From contig CAKOMC010000001.1 in NCBI GenBank assembly GCA_934096535.1, positions 1,255-65,254 on the forward strand: 64,000 nucleotides of DNA. The letters run 5' to 3'. The notes under the pieces were generated by a model. It was not told the DNA's origin and made no database searches. It saw nothing but the letters and a program-made list of their open reading frames with translations. The DNA comes from an uncultured Bacilli bacterium (lineage in GTDB: Bacteria > Bacillota_I > Bacilli_A > RF39 > UBA660). Every line of letters starts with the position of its first letter. Within the stretch, counting starts at the first letter, position 1. Positions 2,793 to 59,712 of this stretch are shown in pieces. Position numbers and translations under genes: made by a program.

Positions 2793-5700
2793 ATAATTTC
2801 ATCCTCCTCTTCTTCTAGAATATTTCCGTCTTCAGGAAATTCTAAATCATCCAAATCATCATCTTCGTCTTCTTCATCTTCTAAATAATCATCATCAGGT
2901 TCTTCTTTTTTTGATTCATTATTAGCATTCTCATTAACTTCATTTGTTAATTCTTTAATTTTTAAAGCATCAACTGGTTCATCATCAGTTTCCATTTCCT
3001 TTAAATCAACTAACTTATCGTTTTGATCTAAAATTTCAACATCTAAACCTAGAGCTTGGAATTCTTTAATTAATACTCTAAATGATTCTGGAATACCAGC
3101 TTCATCAATTGGTTTACCCTTAACTAATGATTCATAAACTTTAACACGACCCATAACATCATCGGCTTTAATAGTCATCATTTCTTGTAGGACATTTGCA
3201 GCACCATAAGCATATAGAGCCCAAACTTCCATTTCTCCGAATCTTTGACCACCAAATTGTGCTTTACCACCTAATGGTTGTTGAGTAACCATTGAGTAAG
3301 GTCCTGTACTTCTAGCATGAATCTTATCATCAACCATGTGATGAAGTTTTACCATATACATAACACCAACAGATACCCTATTTTCAAAGGCATCACCAGT
3401 ACGACCATCGTATAACACAGTCTTACCATCATGGGCAAGTCCAGCTTCTTCCATTTGTTCATAAATTTCATCTTGGCTTGCTCCATCAAATACTGGTGTA
3501 GCATATTTAACTCCTAAGTTTTTACCAGCCATACCTAAGTGTAATTCTAAAATTTGACCGATATTCATACGAGAAGGAACACCTTGTGGGTTTAAGACAA
3601 TATCCACTGGCGTACCATCTGGCATGTAAGGCATATCTTCTTCTGGTAAAATTAGAGAAATAACACCTTTATTACCATGACGACCAGACATCTTATCGCC
3701 GACTTGAATCTTACGCTTTTGAATAATATAAACACGAACTATTTTTGAAACACCAGCAGGTAGTTCATCAGAGTTTTCTTTAGTATAAACTTTAATATCA
3801 TGAACAATACCACCAGCACCGTGTTCTACTTTTAAAGAAGTATCTCTTACTTCACGAGTTTTTTCACCGAAAATTGCATGTAACAATTTTTCTTCAGCTG
3901 TTAATTCTTGAACACCTTTTGGTGTAACCTTACCTACTAAGATATCACCATCTTTAACTTCGGTACCAATACGAACAATACCATTGGCATCTAAGTTCTT
4001 ACGAGCATCTTCACCAACATTTGGAATATCTCTCGTAATTTCCTCAGGTCCTAATTTAGTATCACGACATTCAATATCATAGTGTTCAATATGTAGTGAT
4101 GTATAAACATCATCTTTAACTAATCTTTCATTTAAAACAACAGCATCTTCATAGTTATAACCATTACAAGTCATAAAGGCTACTAACATATTTTTACCTA
4201 ACGCAAGCTCACCATTTTTAGTTGATGGACCATCAGCAATAACTTCACCACGATGAACATTATCACCCTTCTTAACAATGGGATGATGATTAATAGTTGT
4301 AGCGGAGTTACTTCTTTCATAGTTGGCTAAATGATAAGTATCAGTGCCTTTAGCATTCTTAACAATAATTTTTTTACCATCAGCATAATCAACAACACCA
4401 TCAGCCTTAGCAATAATTGTTGAACCAGAATCTCTAGCGGCAATGTATTCAACACCAGTACCAACGATAGGAGATTCACAAGTTAATAGAGGAACAGCTT
4501 GGCGTTGCATGTTCGCACCCATTAAGGCTCTATGGGCATCATCATGTTCTAAGAATGGAATGCAACTTGTCGTAATTGATACAATTTGACTCGGTGCAAC
4601 ATCAATAAAGTCAACATCTTCACGCTTAACCATAACGGCTTCGCCATCTAAACGAGCAATTACTTTTTCATCTAAAATTTCATCACCATTCATATTAATA
4701 GCAGCCGATGCAATATTATAGTCTGCCTCTTCATCAGCAGTTAAATAAACGATTTCATCTGTTGCATGACAATTAACAACCCTACGATATGGAGTCATTA
4801 AAAATCCATATTCATTAATCTTAGCATAACTTGCTAAAGAAGTAATTAAACCGATATTTTGACCTTCTGGAGATTCGATTGGACAAATTCTACCATAGTG
4901 ACTTGAGTTAACATCACGAACATCCATACCAGCACGATCTCTGGCAAGTCCACCTGGCCCTAAAGAAGACAAACGCCTCTTATCAGTAAGTTCAGCAATT
5001 GGGTTAATTTGTTCCATGAATTTTGACAACTGAGAAGAGCCAAAGAATTCTTTTAAAGCTGCTGTAACAGGTCTAATATTAATTAATGTTTTTGGGGTAA
5101 TTGACTCAATTTCTTGGGTAGTCATACGCTCACGAATAACGCGTTCCATACGAGCCATACCAACATTGAATTGTTTTTGAACTAACTCCCCTACTTGTCT
5201 TACACGACGATTTGATAAGTTATCAATTTCATCATCGCGACCAATACCTTCTTGTAAGTCTAAGTAATAAGATACTGATGCATAAACATCTGAAATAGTT
5301 AAACGACGACTATCGATAGTTGGATCATTACCAATAATTTCAATAACTTTAGTTTCATCTTTCTTATTATAAACTTTAACTGTTTGAACTTTGTTATATT
5401 CGTCTAATTCTTCGTTAATCATTACTTCCTTAATGTTGTAACCATTACTAAATATTGGACGAACTTTTTCTAGAACATCTTTAGTTACTAAAGTACCAGT
5501 ACTAGCAACTACATTACCATTTTCATCTTTAATATCTTCAGCTAACGTGCAACCGATTAAACGATCTAAAACATTTAGTTTGCGATTTAATTTATAACGA
5601 CCTACTTTTGCCAAGTCATATCTAAATTTATCAAAGAATCTCGTAATTAACTGATTCTTAGCACTATCAAGAGTTGCTGGTTCACCTGGTCTTAATTTCT

Positions 5701-9254: not shown

Positions 9255-10447
9255 ATATCCTCACTTACTACAATACTTGATAGCCAAGCAAAGCCTAAGT
9301 TAAAGCCCCCACAAATACCATCAACATCCAAAATCTCTCCTGTATAATAAAGTCCAGCATATTCTTTATCTTCTAAAGTAGTCTTTACTCTATTAATAGG
9401 AATACCGCCAGTAACAACTTGTCCTTTAAATATCTCTTTGGTTTCTCTAATTTCTAAAGTTAAATCACTTAAGTTATTAATTAAATCATTTTTTTCTTTC
9501 TTAGTTAAACTTTTATAATGACAATTACTCTTTATACCAGCCTTACTAACTAAAATATAAAGTAGTTTATAAGGAATAATACTTTCTAATAGTTCAATAA
9601 CGGTTCTTTGATACAGGGTATTATCTCGTAAAGTCAACCATTTATCGATATTTTCTTTTTCTATATTAGGTAAAAAATTTAGATGAATTTTAACTTTTTG
9701 CTTTTGGTATAAAGCTTTACTTACAAGCGAACTTAAGTTCATAACGCAAATACCACTGATACCATAATCAGTTAGTTGAACTTCACCTAAATCACTTTTA
9801 AGAAATTTATCATTTTCATAGATACTTACTCTTGCTTCTGCTCTTATACCGGACCATTTATTAAAGAAATCACCATTTAAAACTAGAGGACATAAAGCCG
9901 GCAAAATTGGCGTCATTTTAATTCCTAGTGAATTTAGTAATTCATAATTAGCATTTTCTTTTAAACCGGCCTTACTTCCTATTGCAATAATTATCTTATC
10001 GAAAAGCATTTTCTTACCATTTACCATAATTTGATATTTATTTTCTTTTCTTTTAATATTATTAATCTCACTATCTAAGATAGTCTTAATTTTTAGACGC
10101 TCAATTTCTGTTAAAAAAGCATTTAATACGGAAGTTGCCATATTACTCATTGGATAATAATAACCATTTTTGATTCTAGGTACTAAACCAAGGCTATTTA
10201 AAAATTCTTTAACTTTTAAAATATTTTCTTCATTGACAATCGTTTTTAAAAATTCATAATCACTTGTATAATATTTATCTACACCTATATCTTGATTAAA
10301 ATAATTACAACGACCATTACCAGTCATCAAAATTTTTTTACCCAAAGTACTATTTTTTTCTAAAATAGTTACATCAAATCCCTCTCTATTTAAAAGAATA
10401 GCACTCATCATTCCAGAGGCGCCACCACCAATAATACCAACTTTCAT
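9248..10447 (-). CDS. HI0933/YhiN-like flavoprotein (aminoacetone oxidase family FAD-binding enzyme)
   Basis: The N-terminus MKVGIIGGGASGMMSAILL is a Rossmann GxGxxG motif. Size is 399 aa. It overlaps the upstream oxidoreductase gene by 7 nt. Confidence 0.7.
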   Translation of the reverse strand: MKVGIIGGGASGMMSAILLNREGFDVTILEKNSTLGKKILMTGNGRCNYFNQDIGVDKYYTSDYEFLKTIVNEENILKVKEFLNSLGLVPRIKNGYYYPMSNMATSVLNAFLTEIERLKIKTILDSEINNIKRKENKYQIMVNGKKMLFDKIIIAIGSKAGLKENANYELLNSLGIKMTPILPALCPLVLNGDFFNKWSGIRAEARVSIYENDKFLKSDLGEVQLTDYGISGICVMNLSSLVSKALYQKQKVKIHLNFLPNIEKENIDKWLTLRDNTLYQRTVIELLESIIPYKLLYILVSKAGIKSNCHYKSLTKKEKNDLINNLSDLTLEIRETKEIFKGQVVTGGIPINRVKTTLEDKEYAGLYYTGEILDVDGICGGFNLGFAWLSSIVVSEDIC

Positions 10448-48631: not shown

Positions 48632-49054
48632 TTAAGCAATACTTTCTATCCAAAAATAATCCTGATTTTGAAAATCACAAGCAAAAAGATTACTATTTGT
48701 CTTTAGTTTACTAAAAAACTCTGGTTTAGCAGCTGTTGTTTCCATAACTAAATAAGCATTGCCAATTTTTAGTTTAGTTTCTTCATCATTATAGTAGTTA
48801 TTGTAAATATGCGTATTCATAAATTTTGTATAATGGTCATTATTACGATAACTCGTAAACAAATAATTATTTAGTTCTAATTTGTTAATCGGGCTAACCA
48901 TCTTCTCATACATATTTATCCCATATTCTTGTTCATTACTATTTAACATGTAAATATTTTGAAATGACTTAAATAAGTTATAGGGACAAACTCTTGTCAT
49001 TTTCTTAAACTCATTATTAATATTAAAAATATAAAACTTTCTCAAATTTATCAC
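48632..49054 (-). CDS. hypothetical protein (140 aa)
   Basis: ORF only. It is divergent from variable-family gene 1. Confidence 0.35.
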   Translation of the reverse strand: MINLRKFYIFNINNEFKKMTRVCPYNLFKSFQNIYMLNSNEQEYGINMYEKMVSPINKLELNNYLFTSYRNNDHYTKFMNTHIYNNYYNDEETKLKIGNAYLVMETTAAKPEFFSKLKTNSNLFACDFQNQDYFWIESIA

Positions 49055-49141
49055 CTATTAAAAGTATATATGATTACTTTGAAAAATTATGTCGAATTAT
49101 TAGACCTGTTAAAACTTTTTTCAGGTCTTAAAAGCTCAAAA

Positions 49142-49166
49142 TTCATAGAGTATAAAACTCTATGAA
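49142..49166. repeat. recombination-site-like element (9-bp palindromic arms + 7-bp core TATAAAA)
   Basis: Seen directly in the sequence. Confidence 0.7.
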
Positions 49167-49394
49167 AGCTAATTTTCGGTATCTCTATTTAACTTATAAC
49201 TTAAATATACCATAGTTTTTCTTCTTTTTAAAGGAGATTTTTTATAGTTTTATAGTCAAATTTCTAGTCAAGAGCTTTTATGTCAAAGCCAGTATTTACC
49301 TTGTTTTCAATCCATTTTTTTAGTCAAATAAAAATAAAATTTCTGGTCAAAATTATCGTCAAGCGCCTAATTTTACTAGGTTTTTCCTACTATT

Positions 49395-49419
49395 TTCATA
49401 GAGTTTTATACTCTATGAA
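49395..49419. repeat. recombination-site-like element (core TTTTATA, reverse complement of the 49142 site core)
   Basis: Seen directly in the sequence. Confidence 0.7.
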
Positions 49420-49451
49420 GCCTAAAGTTCGACAAATAAGGAGTTTTGACT

Positions 49452-50612
49452 ATGAAAAAGAAATATCTTATAACGAGGTTTATAATAATTTTAGGAACAC
49501 TTGTTCTCTCAAGAATAAATATAAGTAACAATAAAGACTTAGCAGTTTATATTGAAAACGAACTAAATTCATCAATTCCTGCTAGTAACGAGAATCTTTA
49601 TGTAAATAAAATAGATTGTGATAACAATGTAAATGCTTATTGGGATAATGATAAATGGGGTTTATTTATTAGTAACTTTTCTAAAAAAACTAAGTGTAAC
49701 TTATACTTTATCCATGATACTGAAAAGCCTTATTGGCAAATGGAAAGTGTTGAAAAAGTAAATGTTTTATCAACTGATATCTTGGAATTTAAAATTGCTG
49801 GCACCGATTCTTTAGGCAATGTCTCTTCTAATCTTGATATTAGTAATTTATCCTTCTATGTTAATGACGAATTAGAAAGTCCAATTAAAGTTGAACTTAC
49901 TAAGTTAGAAGAATTAAATAAAAAGATAACCTACTCTATAAAAGTCCACATGGTTGGAGGAGCCGGCAATCTAAAAGTTAAAATCAGTAGTGGTACTTTA
50001 ACTGATACTAGTAATAATCAAAATGCTGAAATAACTTTAGATACTGGAATTAATGTAAGTAAAAATCCGGCTAAAATTTTTAATTTTTATACCGATAAAT
50101 TTCCAGAAAATTCTGTCTGGCCGAAATACTATCGAAATCTATTAAATAATTATTACAATGATGTTACGCATAGTAATAATCCTACTCTAGATGAAATAGC
50201 TTCTGGAGATTATGATTTAATATTTTTTAATAATGATTGTTGGACTGTACCACCCGTAGCAAATTATATTTTTAGTTTGGGCATTAATGTATTTAGCGTT
50301 GGAAATGACAGCACTTCTGCTCTTGACATAATTAGCACATTTACCGAAAATAATAAAGTTGGTAACCATAAAAAAGTAATAAATAATGGCTTGACACACT
50401 ACTTACCTGATTTATTCGCTGGTAGCGAAGATAATTTAAATTTAATCAAATTTTCAGAAGAGGCTACTGTTCTTTACAAAAACGAAACTAACAACACAGA
50501 ATATGACAGTATTGGTTATATGATTAAAAACAATAAAATATGGTTGCATTCTCAATATATATCGAGTAATTATGTTATTCCTATGATACAATTTGCGCTT
50601 GGACAACTATAA
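49452..50612 (+). CDS. variable-family secreted/membrane-anchored protein 1 (conserved N-terminal module + divergent C-terminal domain)
   Basis: RBS AAGGAG lies 8 nt before the ATG at 49452 (the ORF-track start at 49446 is a TTG). MKKKYLITRFIIILGTLVLS is a signal anchor. The module is ...NKIDCDNNVNAYWDNDKWGLFISNFSKKTKCNLYF. Confidence 0.8.
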   Translation: MKKKYLITRFIIILGTLVLSRINISNNKDLAVYIENELNSSIPASNENLYVNKIDCDNNVNAYWDNDKWGLFISNFSKKTKCNLYFIHDTEKPYWQMESVEKVNVLSTDILEFKIAGTDSLGNVSSNLDISNLSFYVNDELESPIKVELTKLEELNKKITYSIKVHMVGGAGNLKVKISSGTLTDTSNNQNAEITLDTGINVSKNPAKIFNFYTDKFPENSVWPKYYRNLLNNYYNDVTHSNNPTLDEIASGDYDLIFFNNDCWTVPPVANYIFSLGINVFSVGNDSTSALDIISTFTENNKVGNHKKVINNGLTHYLPDLFAGSEDNLNLIKFSEEATVLYKNETNNTEYDSIGYMIKNNKIWLHSQYISSNYVIPMIQFALGQL

Positions 50613-50638
50613 TTAATTTATGACCAAAAAAGCAAAAT

Positions 50639-50663
50639 TTCATAGAACATATTACTCTATGAA
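50639..50663. repeat. recombination-site-like element (core CATATTA; one arm mismatch)
   Basis: Seen directly in the sequence. Confidence 0.65.
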
Positions 50664-50903
50664 AGCAGAAAATCGACATTTATTTTTAATTTATATGTTA
50701 ACTATATCACAGTTTTAAGGCTTTTAAAAGAGTCTTTTTTTATCTATTATAGTCATTTTTGTAGTCAAATAATTTTGGTATAAAGTCTGTAAATCCAAGA
50801 CTCTGTAGAAAAATTTGTAGTCAAATATTCACATTCTTTTGTGGTCAAAATTCATGGTCAAAATTTTTCAATCCTCAATAAATACGGGCTTTGCAAGCCA
50901 TTT

Positions 50904-50928
50904 TTCATAGAGTAATATGCTCTATGAA
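50904..50928. repeat. recombination-site-like element (core TAATATG)
   Basis: Seen directly in the sequence. Confidence 0.7.
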
Positions 50929-50960
50929 GCCTAAAGTTCGACAAATAAGGAGTTTTGACT

Positions 50961-52121
50961 ATGAAAAAGAAATATTTTATAACGGGGTTTATAATAATTT
51001 TAGGAATACTTGTTCTCTCAAGAATAAATTTAAATAACAATAAAGACTTAGCGGTTTATATTGAAAACGAACTAAATTCATCAATTCCCGCTAGTAATGA
51101 GAATCTTTATGTAAATAAAATAGATTGTGATAACAATGTAAATGCTTATTGGGATAATGATAACTAGGGTTTATTTATTAGTAACTTTTCTAAAAAAACT
51201 AAGTGTAACTTGTACTTTATCCATGATACTGAAAAGCCTTATTGGCAAATTGAAGAGGTTGAAAAAACAAGTGTTTTATCTACGGATATCTTTACTATAA
51301 AAATTTCTGGTAATGATTCATTAAGTAAAGTTACATCAAGTCTTGATACAAGTAGTTTATCATTTTATGTTAACGACACTTTGCAATCACCAATTAAAGT
51401 TGAACTTACTAAACTAGAAGAATCAAACAAAAAAATCATCTACTCTCTCAAAGTCCATATGATTGGTGGCGAAGGAAATCTAAAGTTAAAAATTAATAGT
51501 AACACTTTAACAGATAATGAAACCAATCAAAATGATGAAATTACATTAGACACAGGCATTACTGTAAGTAAAAATTCGGCTAAAATCTTGCATTATTATA
51601 GTACAAACGAAACTGAGGCTAGTATTCACTCCAACAAAGAAACACTAGATAAATACTATAATAATGTTACACATACAAACAACTATACACAAGAAAAAAT
51701 CATTTCCGAAAAATTTGATTTAGTATTTTTAAACTCTTCCGTTTGGGGAGTCCCTTCTACAGCAAACAATATTTTTAGTGCCAATATAAATTTGCTTAGC
51801 CTTGGCAATGATACAAATGACTATTTGGATATAATTAAAACCAGTGCTTCCAGCAAGTCGTCGGTAAATTCTTCGATGAAAGTATTGAATAACAAACTAA
51901 CATATTATATGCCTGATTATATTGCAGGCAGCACCGACAGTCAAAGACTAATTAAATTTAATAGCGATGTTAATATTTTATATAAAAATACTACAAATGA
52001 TGTCGAATATGATTCTATTGGTTACATTGAGCAAAATGGAAGAACTTGGCTACATTCTCAAATTGCTGAAAGCCAATATTACATTATTCCAATGGTGCAA
52101 TTTACGCTTGGTCAACTATAA
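50961..52121 (+). pseudogene. variable-family gene 2, interrupted by a single in-frame TAG (TGG to TAG in the conserved W of the ...WDNDN-W-GLFISNF motif)
   Basis: ORFs 50955-51167 and 51210-52121 are in the same frame. The stop codon at 51165-51167 replaces the Trp codon that genes 1 and 3 carry at the equivalent position (gataaatgggg vs gataactaggg). The downstream reading continues GLFISNFSKKTKCNLYFIHDTEKPYWQ... Confidence 0.7.
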
Positions 52122-52144
52122 TATTATTAGTTAACCTCTTATTT

Positions 52145-52169
52145 TTCATAGAGCTTATAACTCTATGAA
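52145..52169. repeat. recombination-site-like element (core CTTATAA)
   Basis: Seen directly in the sequence. Confidence 0.7.
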
Positions 52170-52409
52170 AGCAGAAAATCGACATTTATTTTTAATTTAT
52201 ATGTTAACTATATCACAGTTTGAAGGCTTTTAAAAGAGTCTTTTTTTATCTATTATAGTCATTTTTGTAGTCAAATAATTTTAACTTAAAGTCTATAAAC
52301 TCAAGGCTTTGTAGGAAAATTTGTAGTCAAATATTCACATTCTTTTGTGGTCAAAATTTATGGTCAAATTTTTATAAGCTAAGGTAAGCACCGACTTCGA
52401 AGGCCATTT

Positions 52410-52434
52410 TTCATAGAGTTATAAGCTCTATGAA
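52410..52434. repeat. recombination-site-like element (core TTATAAG)
   Basis: Seen directly in the sequence. Confidence 0.7.
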
Positions 52435-52465
52435 GCCTAAAATTCGTTAAAAAGGAGTTTTGACT

Positions 52466-53629
52466 ATGAAAAAGAAATATTTTATAACGGGATTTATAAT
52501 AATTTTAGGAATACTTGTTCTATCAAAGGTAAGCATAAATAGCAATAAAGACTTAGCAGTTTATATTGAAAACGAACTAAATTCATCAATTCCTGCTAGT
52601 AACGAGAATCTTTATGTAAATAAAATAGATTGTGATAACAATGTAAATGCTTATTGGGATAATGATAATTGGGGGTTATTCATTAGTAACTTTTCTAAAA
52701 AAACTAAGTGTAACTTGTACTTTATCCATGATACTGAAAAGCCTTATTGGCAAATTGAAGAAGTTGAAAGAACTAGTGTTTTATCTACGGATATCTTTAC
52801 TATAAAAATTTCTGGTAATGATTCTTTAAGTAAAGTTACCTCAAGTCTTGATACAAGTAGTTTATCATTTTATGTTAATGATACCTTGCAATCACCAATT
52901 AAAGTTGAACTTACTAAATCAGAAGAATTAAATCAAAAAATCACCTACTCTCTCAAAGTCCATATGGTTGGTGGCGAAGGCAATCTAAAGTTAAAAATTA
53001 ATAGTAACACTTTAACAGATAATGAAACCAATCAAAATGATGAAATCACATTAAACACAGGCATTACGGTAAATAAAAATCCTGCAAAAATCATGCACTT
53101 CTATGACTCCAGTTTTACTAGTGCATCCTATCAACTTAACTTTTATAAAAATCTCCTAGATAATTATTATAAAAATGTAACTCATAACAGTAATCCCTCA
53201 TTAGATGAACTAGCTTTAGGAAATTATGACTTGATTTTCTTTAATAATGGTTGCTGGACAGTTCCAACCGTAGCAAATTATATTTTTAGTTTGGGCATTA
53301 ATGTATTTAGCGTTGGAAATGACAGCACATCTGCCTTGGATATAATTAGCACATCTATCACAGATAGTAAAGTTGGTAACCATAAAAAAGTAATAAATAA
53401 TGGCTTGACATACTATTTATCTGATTTAATTGCAGGTGGCGAAGATAATTTAAATTTAATTAAATTCGTTGATGAAGCAACCGTACTTTATAAAAATAAT
53501 ACAAACAACATTGAATACGACTCACTCGGTTATATAAAGAAGAACGATAAAACTTGGCTCCACTCGCAATACATTTCCAACAAATATATTATTCCCATTA
53601 TCCAATTTACTCTTGGCGAACTTAAGTGA
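52466..53629 (+). CDS. variable-family secreted/membrane-anchored protein 3 (close paralog of gene 1)
   Basis: RBS AAGGAG lies before the ATG at 52466. The N-terminal module is near-identical to gene 1. The C-terminal half (…FFNNGCWTVPTVANYIFSLGINVFSVGNDSTSALDIIS…) is a paralog of gene 1. Confidence 0.8.
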   Translation: MKKKYFITGFIIILGILVLSKVSINSNKDLAVYIENELNSSIPASNENLYVNKIDCDNNVNAYWDNDNWGLFISNFSKKTKCNLYFIHDTEKPYWQIEEVERTSVLSTDIFTIKISGNDSLSKVTSSLDTSSLSFYVNDTLQSPIKVELTKSEELNQKITYSLKVHMVGGEGNLKLKINSNTLTDNETNQNDEITLNTGITVNKNPAKIMHFYDSSFTSASYQLNFYKNLLDNYYKNVTHNSNPSLDELALGNYDLIFFNNGCWTVPTVANYIFSLGINVFSVGNDSTSALDIISTSITDSKVGNHKKVINNGLTYYLSDLIAGGEDNLNLIKFVDEATVLYKNNTNNIEYDSLGYIKKNDKTWLHSQYISNKYIIPIIQFTLGELK

Positions 53630-53857
53630 TTTTAAGAAAAAATACTTGCTTACTCAATAAAACTAGCGTATTATATCCTATATCTTATAAACATAATAAG
53701 TCATAATAGTTTTTTTCCTTACTATATATAGAACTAAAACTAGTAAAAAGTATGTTAAATTAAAAAAGCATACTTTTTTTTATCATTAAATAAAACTTGC
53801 CAATTTAAAATTAACTCTTTATCTTCATAGCCAAAATCAATATAAATTAATAACTTT

Positions 53858-57366: not shown

Positions 57367-57393
57367 TCCCATCAAAGACTATCTTTTTTATAC

Positions 57394-58887
57394 CTAATTT
57401 TTAGTAATAACATTTCTAAACGAAACATCATCATAATCTTTTCCACTACCATTTGTTGATAAAAAAATACCAGCCCTACTTCCGGATAAATAGCTACCAC
57501 CTCTTGCCATTGCAGGTCCATTTTCCCATAAAGCGTAAGATGTATCATTATACCAAGTTGAAGAAGTTGAACTTCTAACCTCTTTAGTAGCATCGCCAAG
57601 AGAATACATCTCAAACGAAGTATGATTTAAAAATATATATTTATCAAAATACTTATCTAAAGGAATATTGTCATCATTAAAGCCAGTATCGCTATACAAA
57701 TTTTTATTTTGATTGCCATCAATCAACAAAACCATAACAGCTTCATAAGAACAACCACTTAAATCATATATTCCAAATACATTCCCAGTAGTAGAAGCAT
57801 TAACGCCATTTTCATTCCACCTAAAATTAGTTGGGCATAAATCATTTTCTGAAGCTTCGGAATCAACGCTTGTTCCAGAACACCCAGTAACATAACTTGC
57901 ATTATTATTAATCCAAACCTCACATCCACTTTCAATACAGTTATTTTTATCAATATATCGTCCATATTTAGAATTAGTAAGATAAGCAACCGCTCCCCAG
58001 TCCATATTTTTCATCATATGACTATCAATTTCAGTAGTGTTTAAACCATATAATAAATTGTTAATTAATTCTATATTTCTTGATATCATAAATTTACTAT
58101 ATAAATTTATATTTTTAATACTAACTAAATTAGGCTTTATCGTTGCCAAATCAGTCGTTCCTGTCATTTCAAACTTTCCTACCCAAATACCCGACAATTC
58201 TGTATCGCCAAAAGTAAAAGCTGGGTGAGTTAAATACTCGCCATTTTTGTTTCCATTTGCTTTTGGTCTTTCTGTACTTTCAAATATAATATTAATCATT
58301 TGTTCATCACTAACACCATTTTCGGCATTCCATAATCTATAACGATATCGTGGTATCCAAACATACATTTGTAAAATGTCATTCATATCTATAATTTGTC
58401 CGACCATATCTGGTTTTAAATTCATATTACTATCAAAATATTTATTTTTTACTGTGGTATCGCTACAATTAACCAAAACAGCATTCCCCCACTTATGATT
58501 TTCATAATCATACCAAAGAGAATTTTCATCAGCAATCAAAATATTTCCAGTATCATCATAAACAACAGGAATAAACCCTTGATAAAGTTCAGGCTTCGTA
58601 ACATCTTTTATTGTCTGAAAATACAAATTACACTTAGACTTTTTAGATAAATTACTAACAAATAGCCCCCACTCTTCATCATTCCAGGAAATATTAACAT
58701 CATTATCACAAACAGCCTTCGTAAAAACAGACTCATTCTTACTAGGAATTTTATCAGTTAATTCACCATCAAGATAATTAGCAATATATTCCTCTTTTAA
58801 TAAAGACTTACCAAATAATACATTTGCTGTATATAAAATCATTAATCCTATTATCACTATTAAAATCATCTTTTTTTTCATAATCAT
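57394..58887 (-). CDS. variable-family protein 4: conserved N-terminal module + C-terminal FGE-sulfatase (SUMF1/DUF323)-like domain
   Basis: The module is AVCDNDVNISWNDEEWGLFVSNLSKKSKCNLYF. The C-terminus carries …AMARGGSYLSGSRAGIFLS…VSFRNV, which matches the RGGSW…GFR signature of FGE-sulfatase domains. The likely start is ATG at 58881 or 58887, downstream of an AGGAG RBS. Confidence 0.75.
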   Translation of the reverse strand: MIMKKKMILIVIIGLMILYTANVLFGKSLLKEEYIANYLDGELTDKIPSKNESVFTKAVCDNDVNISWNDEEWGLFVSNLSKKSKCNLYFQTIKDVTKPELYQGFIPVVYDDTGNILIADENSLWYDYENHKWGNAVLVNCSDTTVKNKYFDSNMNLKPDMVGQIIDMNDILQMYVWIPRYRYRLWNAENGVSDEQMINIIFESTERPKANGNKNGEYLTHPAFTFGDTELSGIWVGKFEMTGTTDLATIKPNLVSIKNINLYSKFMISRNIELINNLLYGLNTTEIDSHMMKNMDWGAVAYLTNSKYGRYIDKNNCIESGCEVWINNNASYVTGCSGTSVDSEASENDLCPTNFRWNENGVNASTTGNVFGIYDLSGCSYEAVMVLLIDGNQNKNLYSDTGFNDDNIPLDKYFDKYIFLNHTSFEMYSLGDATKEVRSSTSSTWYNDTSYALWENGPAMARGGSYLSGSRAGIFLSTNGSGKDYDDVSFRNVITKN

Positions 58888-58911
58888 TCTCCTAAATAAC
58901 CATATTTCGGC

Positions 58912-58936
58912 TTCATAGAGTATACAACTCTATGAA
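58912..58936. repeat. recombination-site-like element (core TATACAA)
   Basis: Seen directly in the sequence. Confidence 0.7.
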
Positions 58937-59176
58937 AAACTGACCGTGAGACCCGTATTCACCTAGAAGTAGTAATTAATTGACCAGAAATTTTGACGAG
59001 AAAAAATTAGATTTATTGACTACAAAAGGTTCTTAGACTCAAGGTAACTAAAGACTTAGAAAGAAAATTAATTGACTATAAATTTGACTATAATAAAATT
59101 CAAAATCATCTTTAAAACATTTAAAAACTATGATATATTTAACATATAAGTTAAAAATAAACGCCGATTTTCCGCT

Positions 59177-59201
59177 TTCATAGAGTTGTATACTCTACGA
59201 A
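59177..59201. repeat. recombination-site-like element (core TTGTATA; one arm mismatch)
   Basis: Seen directly in the sequence. Confidence 0.65.
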
Positions 59202-59322
59202 AAAGTAAGTTTTATAGTCAAAAAAAAGGCCTTGTATCATCTAATCGATTTTAGGTCTTTTAATTATTATAATAAAAATACAATTCTAAATAATCTTTTT
59301 ATCCTTTTAAATAAATCTAAAA

Positions 59323-59712
59323 TTATTTGGTAAAATAAACACTACACTTAGTTTTAGCAACATCATTAGTTATAGTAAGACTCCAACTACTAGTATCAAA
59401 AGTAGCGGTTGCCCCATTCGTACAACTAACACTTTTTAAAACTAGACTAGTATCTTTACTAGGAAATCCCCCACTCACATAAGTATCATTAATAAAAGCA
59501 ATTTTCTTTATTGGTTCGTAAGTAAACTTGGCAACTGTCGTTCTTATAACCTCTTCTTCAGCGTGCGCTGTAAACTTTGAAAAAGCAAAATAAACCACCG
59601 TTGATAAACATAAACATAATGATACAGTGCCAATTCCATACTTCAAATATAAAACTCTATTTTTTTTACGCTCTATTTTTTTTAAAACTTTATTATAATC
59701 TTTACTCATCAT
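59323..59712 (-). CDS. short family member consisting of the N-terminal module only (129 aa)
   Basis: A signal anchor, then …SVSCTNGATATFDTSSWSLTITNDVAKTKCSVYFTK, which follows the same C…W.L…K.KC.(L/V)YF pattern. It ends 3 residues after the motif. It lies about 120 bp outside the distal site of switch 4, in the same orientation as gene 4. Confidence 0.5.
   Translation of the reverse strand: MMSKDYNKVLKKIERKKNRVLYLKYGIGTVSLCLCLSTVVYFAFSKFTAHAEEEVIRTTVAKFTYEPIKKIAFINDTYVSGGFPSKDTSLVLKSVSCTNGATATFDTSSWSLTITNDVAKTKCSVYFTK

Follow-up and report, generated by a model that had tools for sequence, protein, structure and literature searches.

Promoter-like cassettes bounded by lox-like sites invert upstream of a surface-protein family in uncultured gut Bacilli

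Short cassettes located directly upstream of predicted surface-protein genes were analysed in a 64-kb chromosomal stretch of an uncultured Bacilli bacterium (the window, about 28% G+C). Each of the four cassettes consists of an interior of 228–240 bp bounded by two inverted 25-bp sites. Comparison of assemblies shows that precise site-to-site inversion of such interiors occurs in nature, including at the locus of the first cassette. In all likelihood (we put the probability at about 0.85), each cassette is an inverton flipped in place by a chromosomal integrase of the Tn916/Tn1549 type. The gene would be OFF in state A, where a promoter-like element points away from it, and ON in state B, where the element points towards it.

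Paired sites and inversion of the cassettes

A pattern search allowing up to two mismatches detected eight TTCATAGAG-N7-CTCTATGAA sites in the window, where 0.00 are expected by chance according to 100 dinucleotide-preserving shuffles. The sites form four pairs (Table 1), with start-to-start spacings of 253 or 265 bp. Within each pair, the sites are in inverted orientation and the 7-nt cores are exactly reverse-complementary, the core being different in each of the four pairs. This organization fits that of lox/FRT/dif-type core sites, with two inverted arms, TTCATAGAG and CTCTATGAA, around a 7-nt asymmetric spacer. The resulting cassettes are 278, 290, 290, and 290 bp long. The interior of cassette 4, once reverse-complemented, aligns with the other three with a mean column identity of 81%. 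The start codons of the three tandem paralogs are found 31–32 nt downstream of the end of the proximal site. Across cassettes, this leader measures 24–32 nt and contains only a ribosome-binding site (RBS), being too short to accommodate a promoter of its own.

An initial annotation, based on the sequence of the window alone, had described three cassettes of about 280–290 bp before three tandem paralogs, with partner cores that are exact reverse complements, inverted, and different from one cassette to the next. These features were all recovered. The fourth cassette (58912–59201), which is reversed and precedes a minus-strand gene, had been missed. The second of the three paralogs turned out to be a pseudogene, and the arms are not perfect at every site as had been stated, since the sites at 50639 (TTCATAGAA) and 59177 (CTCTACGAA) each contain one mismatch.

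Inversion was found by examining orthologous loci. Look-ups with exact protein sequences retrieved the ortholog of cassette 1 in contigs with the same order of obg, SirA-like open reading frame (ORF), cassette, and paralog. Two of these contigs, L219 and L220, were assembled from separate Hadza samples and represent essentially one strain, with one mismatch over 3028 bp on the left of the cassette and one over 2792 bp on the right. Their 228-bp interiors display 166 mismatches when aligned directly and none when one is reverse-complemented. The window itself compares likewise with L220: identity amounts to 97.7 and 92% in the two flanks, and the interior reaches 93.9% only in the flipped alignment. 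When all orthologous pairs in which both flanks match are counted, 26 are flipped and 88 have the same orientation, the flipped pairs covering at least 13 loci besides that of cassette 1. They include strains with flanks of 97–99.6% identity. In one such comparison, between L096 and both L187 and L160, the flanks are 97–99% identical and the interior is 98.3% identical when flipped. The assembler k-mers given in the records (K77, k141) are longer than the 25-bp inverted repeat, so a flipped contig can only arise from reads that span the junction. The flipped-state junction predicted for cassette 1 contains GCTCAAAATTCATAGAGTATAAAACTCTATGAAAATAGTAGGAAAAACC. A scan of metagenomes for flipped junctions specific to the ‘GCC-leader’ class gave no match.

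Pattern scans of representative genomes and metagenome contigs extended the site family to about 200 loci at least. Nearly all belong to metagenome-assembled genomes (MAGs) labelled uncultured Bacilli, Tenericutes, or ‘Mycoplasma sp. CAG:956’, or to human-gut metagenomes. We take these records to represent the RF39 group, common uncultured bacteria of the gut. A set of 172 cassettes among the matches listed was analysed. The cores are exactly reverse-complementary in 166 of them, and 46 different cores are present. Most cores have the form T-N5-A (T at position 1 in 145 and A at position 7 in 171 of the 172), so that the symmetric arms are effectively 10 bp long around five free bases. The spacing of the sites is bimodal, with 34 cassettes at 252–255 bp and 138 at 262–267 bp, about one helical turn apart. 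Single MAGs harbour at least 20–25 cassettes, and nearly all flanking genes have one N-terminal module in common, forming one loose superfamily. No cassette-like sequence was found in phage or plasmid collections. No Rfam family matches the cassettes; the only low-scoring hit, DUF805b at 49384–49416, falls on the proximal-site hairpin with E = 0.77, far below the threshold.

The initial annotation had interpreted the cassettes as independent promoter invertons in front of a variable surface-protein family. This view is supported by the inversion at the cassette 1 ortholog and at the 13 or more other loci. Two checks that it had proposed gave positive results: orthologous loci do include flipped orientations, as in L219 and L220 and the 26 pairs overall, and further copies of the sites exist, as the fourth pair of the window and the 172 cassettes elsewhere.

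Cassette anatomy, candidate recombinase, and flanking genes

The anatomy of the cassettes was drawn from the consensus of 165 distinct interiors, in which two kinds of elements are conserved. The first is an extended −10 motif, TGnTA(T/A)nnT, present in 156 of the 172 cassettes, invariably 36–38 nt from the distal site and preceded, 16–17 nt upstream, by the hexamer TTAAAA or TTTAAA. With a simple sigma-70-type score, the outward strand exceeds the other strand in all 172 cassettes. The best outward promoter match occupies one fixed position, whereas those of the other strand occur at scattered positions. The second element is a repeat with the consensus TTnT(A/G)GTCAAA (TAGTCAAA), almost confined to one strand (657 GTCAA, against 10 on the other). 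There are about four repeats per interior, in two pairs 12 bp apart (positions of about 99/111 and 191/203), together with a less conserved fifth copy. Given the three-domain heterobivalent layout of the enzyme presented below, these same-strand repeats are candidate arm-type sites, and the four well-conserved copies would correspond in number to the protomers of a recombinase tetramer.

State A, with the promoter-like element directed away from the gene, accounts for 123 cassettes and state B, with the element directed towards it, for 21; seven cassettes have divergent genes on both sides. The number of cassettes in state B ranges from 0 to 2 per MAG, out of up to 25. In the window, state A applies to all four cassettes, which are probably OFF; the initial annotation had overlooked that the promoter-like element faces away from the genes here. 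The equation of state B with ON, and of state A with OFF, is suggested by the promoter consensus and by this pattern of few ON cassettes.

The following mechanism is proposed. A segment of 228–240 bp with one outward promoter would lie between two inverted 25-bp core sites, each with symmetric arms of 9–10 bp around a crossover core of 5–7 bp. In state A, the promoter would fire away from the gene through the distal site, leaving the gene OFF. In state B, it would read through the proximal site and the leader of 24–32 nt into the RBS, turning the gene ON. The interior repeats would bridge to both core sites and confine recombination to partners. Each surface protein of the large anchored family would be switched independently, with few being ON at once.

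Cassettes between two divergent long genes are exemplified by L033:4544, L041:2854, L076:3204, L093:6570, and L140:2814, where a single switch might alternate the two genes. The neighbouring gene in L041 starts with a type-IV-pilin-like signal, KGFTIPELL. Many cassettes also have a short near-palindromic motif (consensus CGAAATTTCG) 2–3 nt to the right of both the distal and the proximal site. It is located inside the switch at the distal site (49167–49180 in cassette 1) and outside, in the leader, at the proximal site (49420–49433). As the copies are to the right of both sites, they are in direct orientation despite the inverted cores.

A motif scan of all loci identified one recurrent tyrosine recombinase, of 355–361 aa, the only other recombinase being one unrelated Xer-like gene. 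By tblastn, this clade was found in 11 loci retrieved solely with the site pattern, each copy being within about 200 bp of a site. These comprise five CAG:956-type contigs (99% identical), three complete genes and one fragment of a second lineage (79–81%), and three from distant Clostridia, with enzymes 33–36% identical. The complete genes are divergent from a surface-protein gene, with an inverton in between. The sites had been initially annotated as targets of the tyrosine-recombinase type, and the adjacent clade agrees with this; the recombinase that was to be searched for was found beside sites in these 11 other loci and is missing from the window.

The recombinase contains a catalytic domain (PF00589, E = 1e-24) and a SAM-like core-binding domain (PF14659, E = 5e-10), with the motif HALRHTFAT...LGHSNVSITLNLY. 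Its best match in the PDB is Tn1549 Int (E = 5e-15). Comparison of the N-terminal domain with the PDB by sequence, single or profile, returned chance matches only. In a structure model, it displays an AP2-like fold of a three-stranded sheet and a helix, as in arm-binding domains. According to this model, the enzyme has the three-domain heterobivalent layout, with arm-binding, core-binding, and catalytic domains. On the basis of the genomic association, this 355-aa Tn916/Tn1549-type tyrosine integrase likely flips the cassettes. A homolog of 75% identity, P0003, resides among housekeeping genes with no site nearby, indicating that adjacency of recombinase and inverton is frequent but not universal.

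Further observations concern the surroundings of the recombinase gene. The recombinase clusters P0001 and P0002 have 327 and 168 members and their longest contigs measure just 1.5–1.9 kb, which suggests that assemblies routinely break on both sides of the recombinase gene, as expected with switching or repeated flanks. In a Clostridia MAG (L019:3906–5396; also in L060 and L105), inverted TTCATAGAG/CTCTATGAA arms flank a 1466-bp segment that holds a related recombinase gene; the inverted repeat of L019 extends to 34 bp and GTCAA arrays are not present. In L096, a strong bidirectional terminator-like hairpin (AAAAAGACTTGT...ACAAGTCTTTTTT, 4190–4240) is positioned between the recombinase gene and the inverton. 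The idea that the neighbouring inverton is a master toggle of the recombinase gene was dropped because this terminator separates the two, the recombinase gene having its own promoter region. Weaker hairpins are found beyond the distal sites of cassette 1 (49101–49133) and cassette 4 (59222–59262). These hairpins, including that of L096, may terminate outward transcription in the OFF state.

Among the genes of this chromosomal window are rpoB, ruvAB, pcrA/uvrD, obg, frr, gltX, and LCP-family and sporulation-related genes. A 72.6-kb contig from a Hadza gut metagenome includes the window sequence, identical. The paralogs belong to a narrow family with 119 database relatives, none of which is named, and no Pfam or NCBIfam entry matches it. 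The pseudogene paralog 2 is intact in assembly L107, where a single-base difference gives TGG and a protein of 386 aa. In the window, cassette 2 in front of this pseudogene is itself still intact.

Table 1. Coordinates of the cassettes and of the genes that follow them in the window
Feature	Position	Strand	Description
Cassette 1 distal site	49142–49166		TTCATAGAG-TATAAAA-CTCTATGAA; pattern search
Cassette 1 interior	49167–49394		Invertible, 228 bp, state A (promoter away from paralog 1)
Cassette 1 promoter-like element	49204–49232	minus	−35-like TTTAAA 49227–49232; extended −10 TGGTATATT 49204–49212; reads out via distal site
Cassette 1 repeats	49251–49365	plus	Six same-strand (T/G)(A/G)GTCAA, candidate arm-type sites; GTCAA starts 49255, 49267, 49282, 49323, 49346, 49358
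Cassette 1 proximal site	49395–49419		TTCATAGAG-TTTTATA-CTCTATGAA
Cassette 1 leader	49420–49451	plus	32 nt; RBS AAGGAG at 49438–49443
Paralog 1	49452–50612	plus	386 aa; membrane anchor, conserved N-terminal module, Ig-like sandwich, C-terminal GATase1/ThuA-like domain
Cassette 2 distal site	50639–50663		Core CATATTA; arm mismatch TTCATAGAA
Cassette 2 interior	50664–50903		State A; extended −10 TGATATAGT at 50701–50709, minus strand
Cassette 2 repeats	50764, 50820, 50844, 50857		GTCAA
Cassette 2 proximal site	50904–50928		Core TAATATG
Paralog 2	50961–52121	plus	Pseudogene in window; in-frame TAG 51165–51167
Cassette 3 distal site	52145–52169		Core CTTATAA
Cassette 3 interior	52170–52409		State A; extended −10 TGATATAGT at 52207–52215, minus strand
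Cassette 3 repeats	52270, 52326, 52350, 52363		GTCAA
Cassette 3 proximal site	52410–52434		Core TTATAAG
Paralog 3	52466–53629	plus	387 aa
Cassette 4 gene	57394–58887	minus	497 aa; same N-terminal module as paralogs
Cassette 4 proximal site	58912–58936		Plus-strand core TATACAA; 24 nt from minus-strand gene start
Cassette 4 interior	58937–59176		State A relative to minus-strand gene; extended −10 TGATATATT at 59131–59139, plus strand
Cassette 4 repeats	58980, 58993, 59016, 59072, 59084		TTGAC on plus strand
Cassette 4 distal site	59177–59201		Core TTGTATA; arm mismatch CTCTACGAA

A SirA-like ORF (PF10747, sporulation inhibitor of replication, with E = 2e-7; 48632–49054, minus strand) has its start 87 nt past the cassette 1 distal site, and the outward promoter-like element of this cassette faces it in the present orientation. 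Near cassette 4, a 129-aa ORF (59323–59712, minus strand) comprises little beyond a membrane anchor and the N-terminal module of the family. The same module is found in a 400-aa protein with an ALK/LTK-type glycine-rich domain (PF12810; 25911–27113, minus strand), with no cassette upstream. The assemblies L207 and L208 are collinear with the window except that they do not have the block 57367–59322, which comprises the 497-aa gene and cassette 4 as well as some 120 bp past it. Their breakpoint is at about 9900–9935, and no repeat is evident at the breakpoints, which points to gene-plus-switch units being gained or lost as blocks.

Alternative explanations and the variable cores

Several observations weigh against the proposal that each cassette is an inverton flipped by the Tn916/Tn1549-type integrase. 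Cassettes 2 and 3 were seen in a single orientation in L106, L107, L207, L208, and L210–L222, where present, and cassette 4 was seen in the window only, hence in one orientation. Pfam scans and a motif scan of the ORFs of the window revealed no recombinase gene; the candidate integrase would be encoded elsewhere in the genome. Clostridia loci with the same core sites have no GTCAA arrays. The ON assignment is built on consensus matches, and cassettes 1–3 contain a weaker gene-ward candidate promoter, TTTAAA-18-TATAGT. Finally, the cores are unmatched in 6 of the 172 cassettes, three of them differing at several positions. These may be hybrids from recombination between cassettes, or assembly chimeras. 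Examples of unmatched cores are found at L208:4680–4968, L125:1227, L183:13, and L193:2366; in L208, cassette 3 has the proximal core of cassette 2.

The sites could instead be operators whose palindromes bind a dimeric regulator, or RNA hairpins that function as a terminator behind the upstream gene and as a structure in the 5′ untranslated region ahead of the RBS, the matched cores then contributing to a long-range RNA helix. Each site does fold as a hairpin of 9–10 bp (about −11 kcal/mol), the distal sites follow the stop codon of the upstream paralog, with 49142–49166 flagged by a terminator scan, and covarying cores would suit a 25-bp helix between the sites. Such a helix has no need of symmetric arms, however, no Rfam family matches, and a tyrosine recombinase clade co-occurs with the sites. 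As a sole explanation, this proposal is refuted by the precise inversions at the cassette 1 locus and at the 13 or more others, and we regard it as very improbable. Hardly more plausible is that the cassettes are elements resembling miniature inverted-repeat transposable elements, with 25-bp terminal inverted repeats, inserted by chance upstream of genes. Their size of about 280 bp, their boundaries, their number of at least 20–25 per genome, and the absence of cassette 4 with its gene from L207 and L208 are in keeping with mobile elements. Against this, target-site duplications of at least 5 nt (k ≥ 5) were found in 0 of 170 cases, the same as in the control, no empty site with a duplication was seen, and nothing similar is present in phage and plasmid collections. 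In addition, the cores vary between copies while matching within a copy, the position is fixed relative to the RBS of one gene superfamily, and the segments flip in place. An unlikely variant of the inverton proposal has the opposite polarity, the majority orientation, as in the window, being ON by virtue of the gene-ward TTTAAA-18-TATAGT. Most assemblies are in state A, as would be expected of normally expressed genes. The gene-ward candidates are weaker and scattered, however, and their −10 is part of a GTCAA repeat, whereas the outward strand has the best promoter match, at one fixed position, in every one of the 172 cassettes. One gene in state A in the window is a pseudogene, and the number of cassettes flipped per genome, 0–2 among as many as 25, suits a system with few genes ON.

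The variability of the cores raises a separate question. Most tyrosine recombinases, such as Cre, FLP, and lambda Int, need homology of the overlap region, and the initial annotation considered that heterospecific spacers forbid recombination between cassettes. Core identity would then be required, and different cores would have been selected like an address code to confine recombination and prevent deletions in tandem arrays. The matching of the cores in 166 of 172 cassettes, the existence of 46 different cores, and the tandem arrays of the window and of L029, in which all cores differ, are consistent with this. Yet the same core occurs up to 2–3 times within single MAGs. Of 25 pairs of neighbouring cassettes, 2 have a core in common, compared with 1.0 expected by chance, giving no sign of selection to avoid equal cores. 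A requirement for core identity should also slow the evolution of the cores, because single mutations would lock the switch. The cores diverge at the rate of the interiors, neither faster nor slower, as judged from the per-site divergence of core/interior by identity bin (0.012/0.011, 0.016/0.034, 0.079/0.079, 0.133/0.126, and 0.180/0.174). Nearly every core change is mirrored at the partner site. Tn1549 Int, the nearest relative of solved structure, works on heteroduplex crossover regions of 5–7 nt (PMC5871717). An address code therefore appears doubtful, and the forbidding role attributed to the spacers is not borne out.

Tolerance of heteroduplexes may offer another explanation. Inversion between a mutant and a wild-type core would leave both product sites heteroduplex. 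As the sites are inverted, each parental strand would have the same variant at both sites, and replication would then give daughters with matched cores. We consider the chances about even that such tolerance explains the concerted drift of the cores at a neutral rate; that it is deduced from a relative of only about 30% identity counts against it. A broader scheme is put forward tentatively, as a possibility that we would not bet on. A domesticated Tn916/Tn1549-like integrase would serve as a genome-wide invertase, the four arm repeats enabling the tetramer to connect with both flanking core sites. The arm repeats would thereby limit synapsis to partners about 253 or 265 bp apart, while the cores would self-homogenize and drift freely. 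If true, this would be a new way of keeping many identical-armed sites in a genome without rearrangements, the cassettes being natural programmable switches.

Known systems and significance

Invertible promoters are well known and large surveys of them exist. In Mycoplasma penetrans, the mpl (P35) lipoproteins have one invertible promoter per gene (Horino et al. 2003, summarised in PMC2268961). The present system resembles this one in that a small low-GC genome contains a large family of surface proteins, partly in tandem, and that each gene would be switched independently by its own short segment, with a recombinase acting on many loci. It differs in the enzyme, as Xer-like recombinases have been proposed for mpl, in contrast to the Tn916/Tn1549-type integrase with an arm-binding domain considered here. 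The mpl inverted repeats are 12 bp long around about 135 bp. Here, lox-like sites of 25 bp with variable matched cores surround 228–240 bp that include repeat arrays.

In Escherichia coli, the fimS promoter segment of about 300 bp is inverted by the tyrosine recombinases FimB and FimE, with accessory sites inside the segment. It is a single locus with 9-bp inverted repeats, recombinases without an arm-binding domain, and accessory sites for IHF and Lrp. Inversion of a segment of about this size, here with a promoter-like element, is common to both systems, but one site family serves at least 20 loci here. One recombinase acting on many dispersed promoter invertons of surface structures in gut bacteria, as proposed here, is the arrangement of Bacteroides Mpi/Tsr and Clostridioides difficile RecV, which belong to other recombinase clades (Mpi being a serine recombinase) and use other families of inverted repeats. 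To our knowledge, symmetric-arm sites with cassette-specific matched cores have not been reported in the latter systems.

In Cre/loxP and FLP/FRT, two inverted arms flank an asymmetric spacer of 6–8 bp, and partners in inverted orientation lead to inversion. The arms are 13 bp long in these systems, as opposed to 9–10 bp here, where the enzyme has an additional arm-binding domain. Cre and FLP need spacer identity, whereas the spacers vary naturally here, with 46 kinds. Tn1549 Int (PDB 6EMY) recognizes AT-rich inverted arms around a crossover region of 5–7 nt of free sequence, in which a T/A pair at the edge matters (PMC5871717). The candidate enzyme has the same three-domain layout, and the cores are of the form T-N5-A. 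Tn1549 Int performs excision and integration of a mobile element; its relative here appears to have been domesticated for in-place inversion, among housekeeping genes.

A literature search for the site sequence returned unrelated eukaryotic matches only, no paper joining ‘invertons’ and ‘RF39’ was found, and the DeepInverton survey makes no mention of these taxa. Our searches yielded no prior account of the site family, of its link to an arm-domain integrase, of the internal repeat array, of the concerted drift of the cores, or of the scale of the system in these bacteria. The system pairs lox-like sites with an integrase predicted to have an arm-binding domain, and its crossover cores drift in concert.

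If both the tolerance of heterology and the guidance by arm sites are true, the cassette would constitute a compact portable inversion module, with all cis elements within about 290 bp and one enzyme, which could serve for synthetic memory switches. Switching at these loci explains why the genomes assemble poorly there. For the bacteria themselves, the presence of at least 20–25 switches per genome in front of one superfamily suggests that a large share of the predicted surface proteins is under stochastic ON/OFF control, which bears on immune evasion, phage evasion, and the persistence of strains in the gut.

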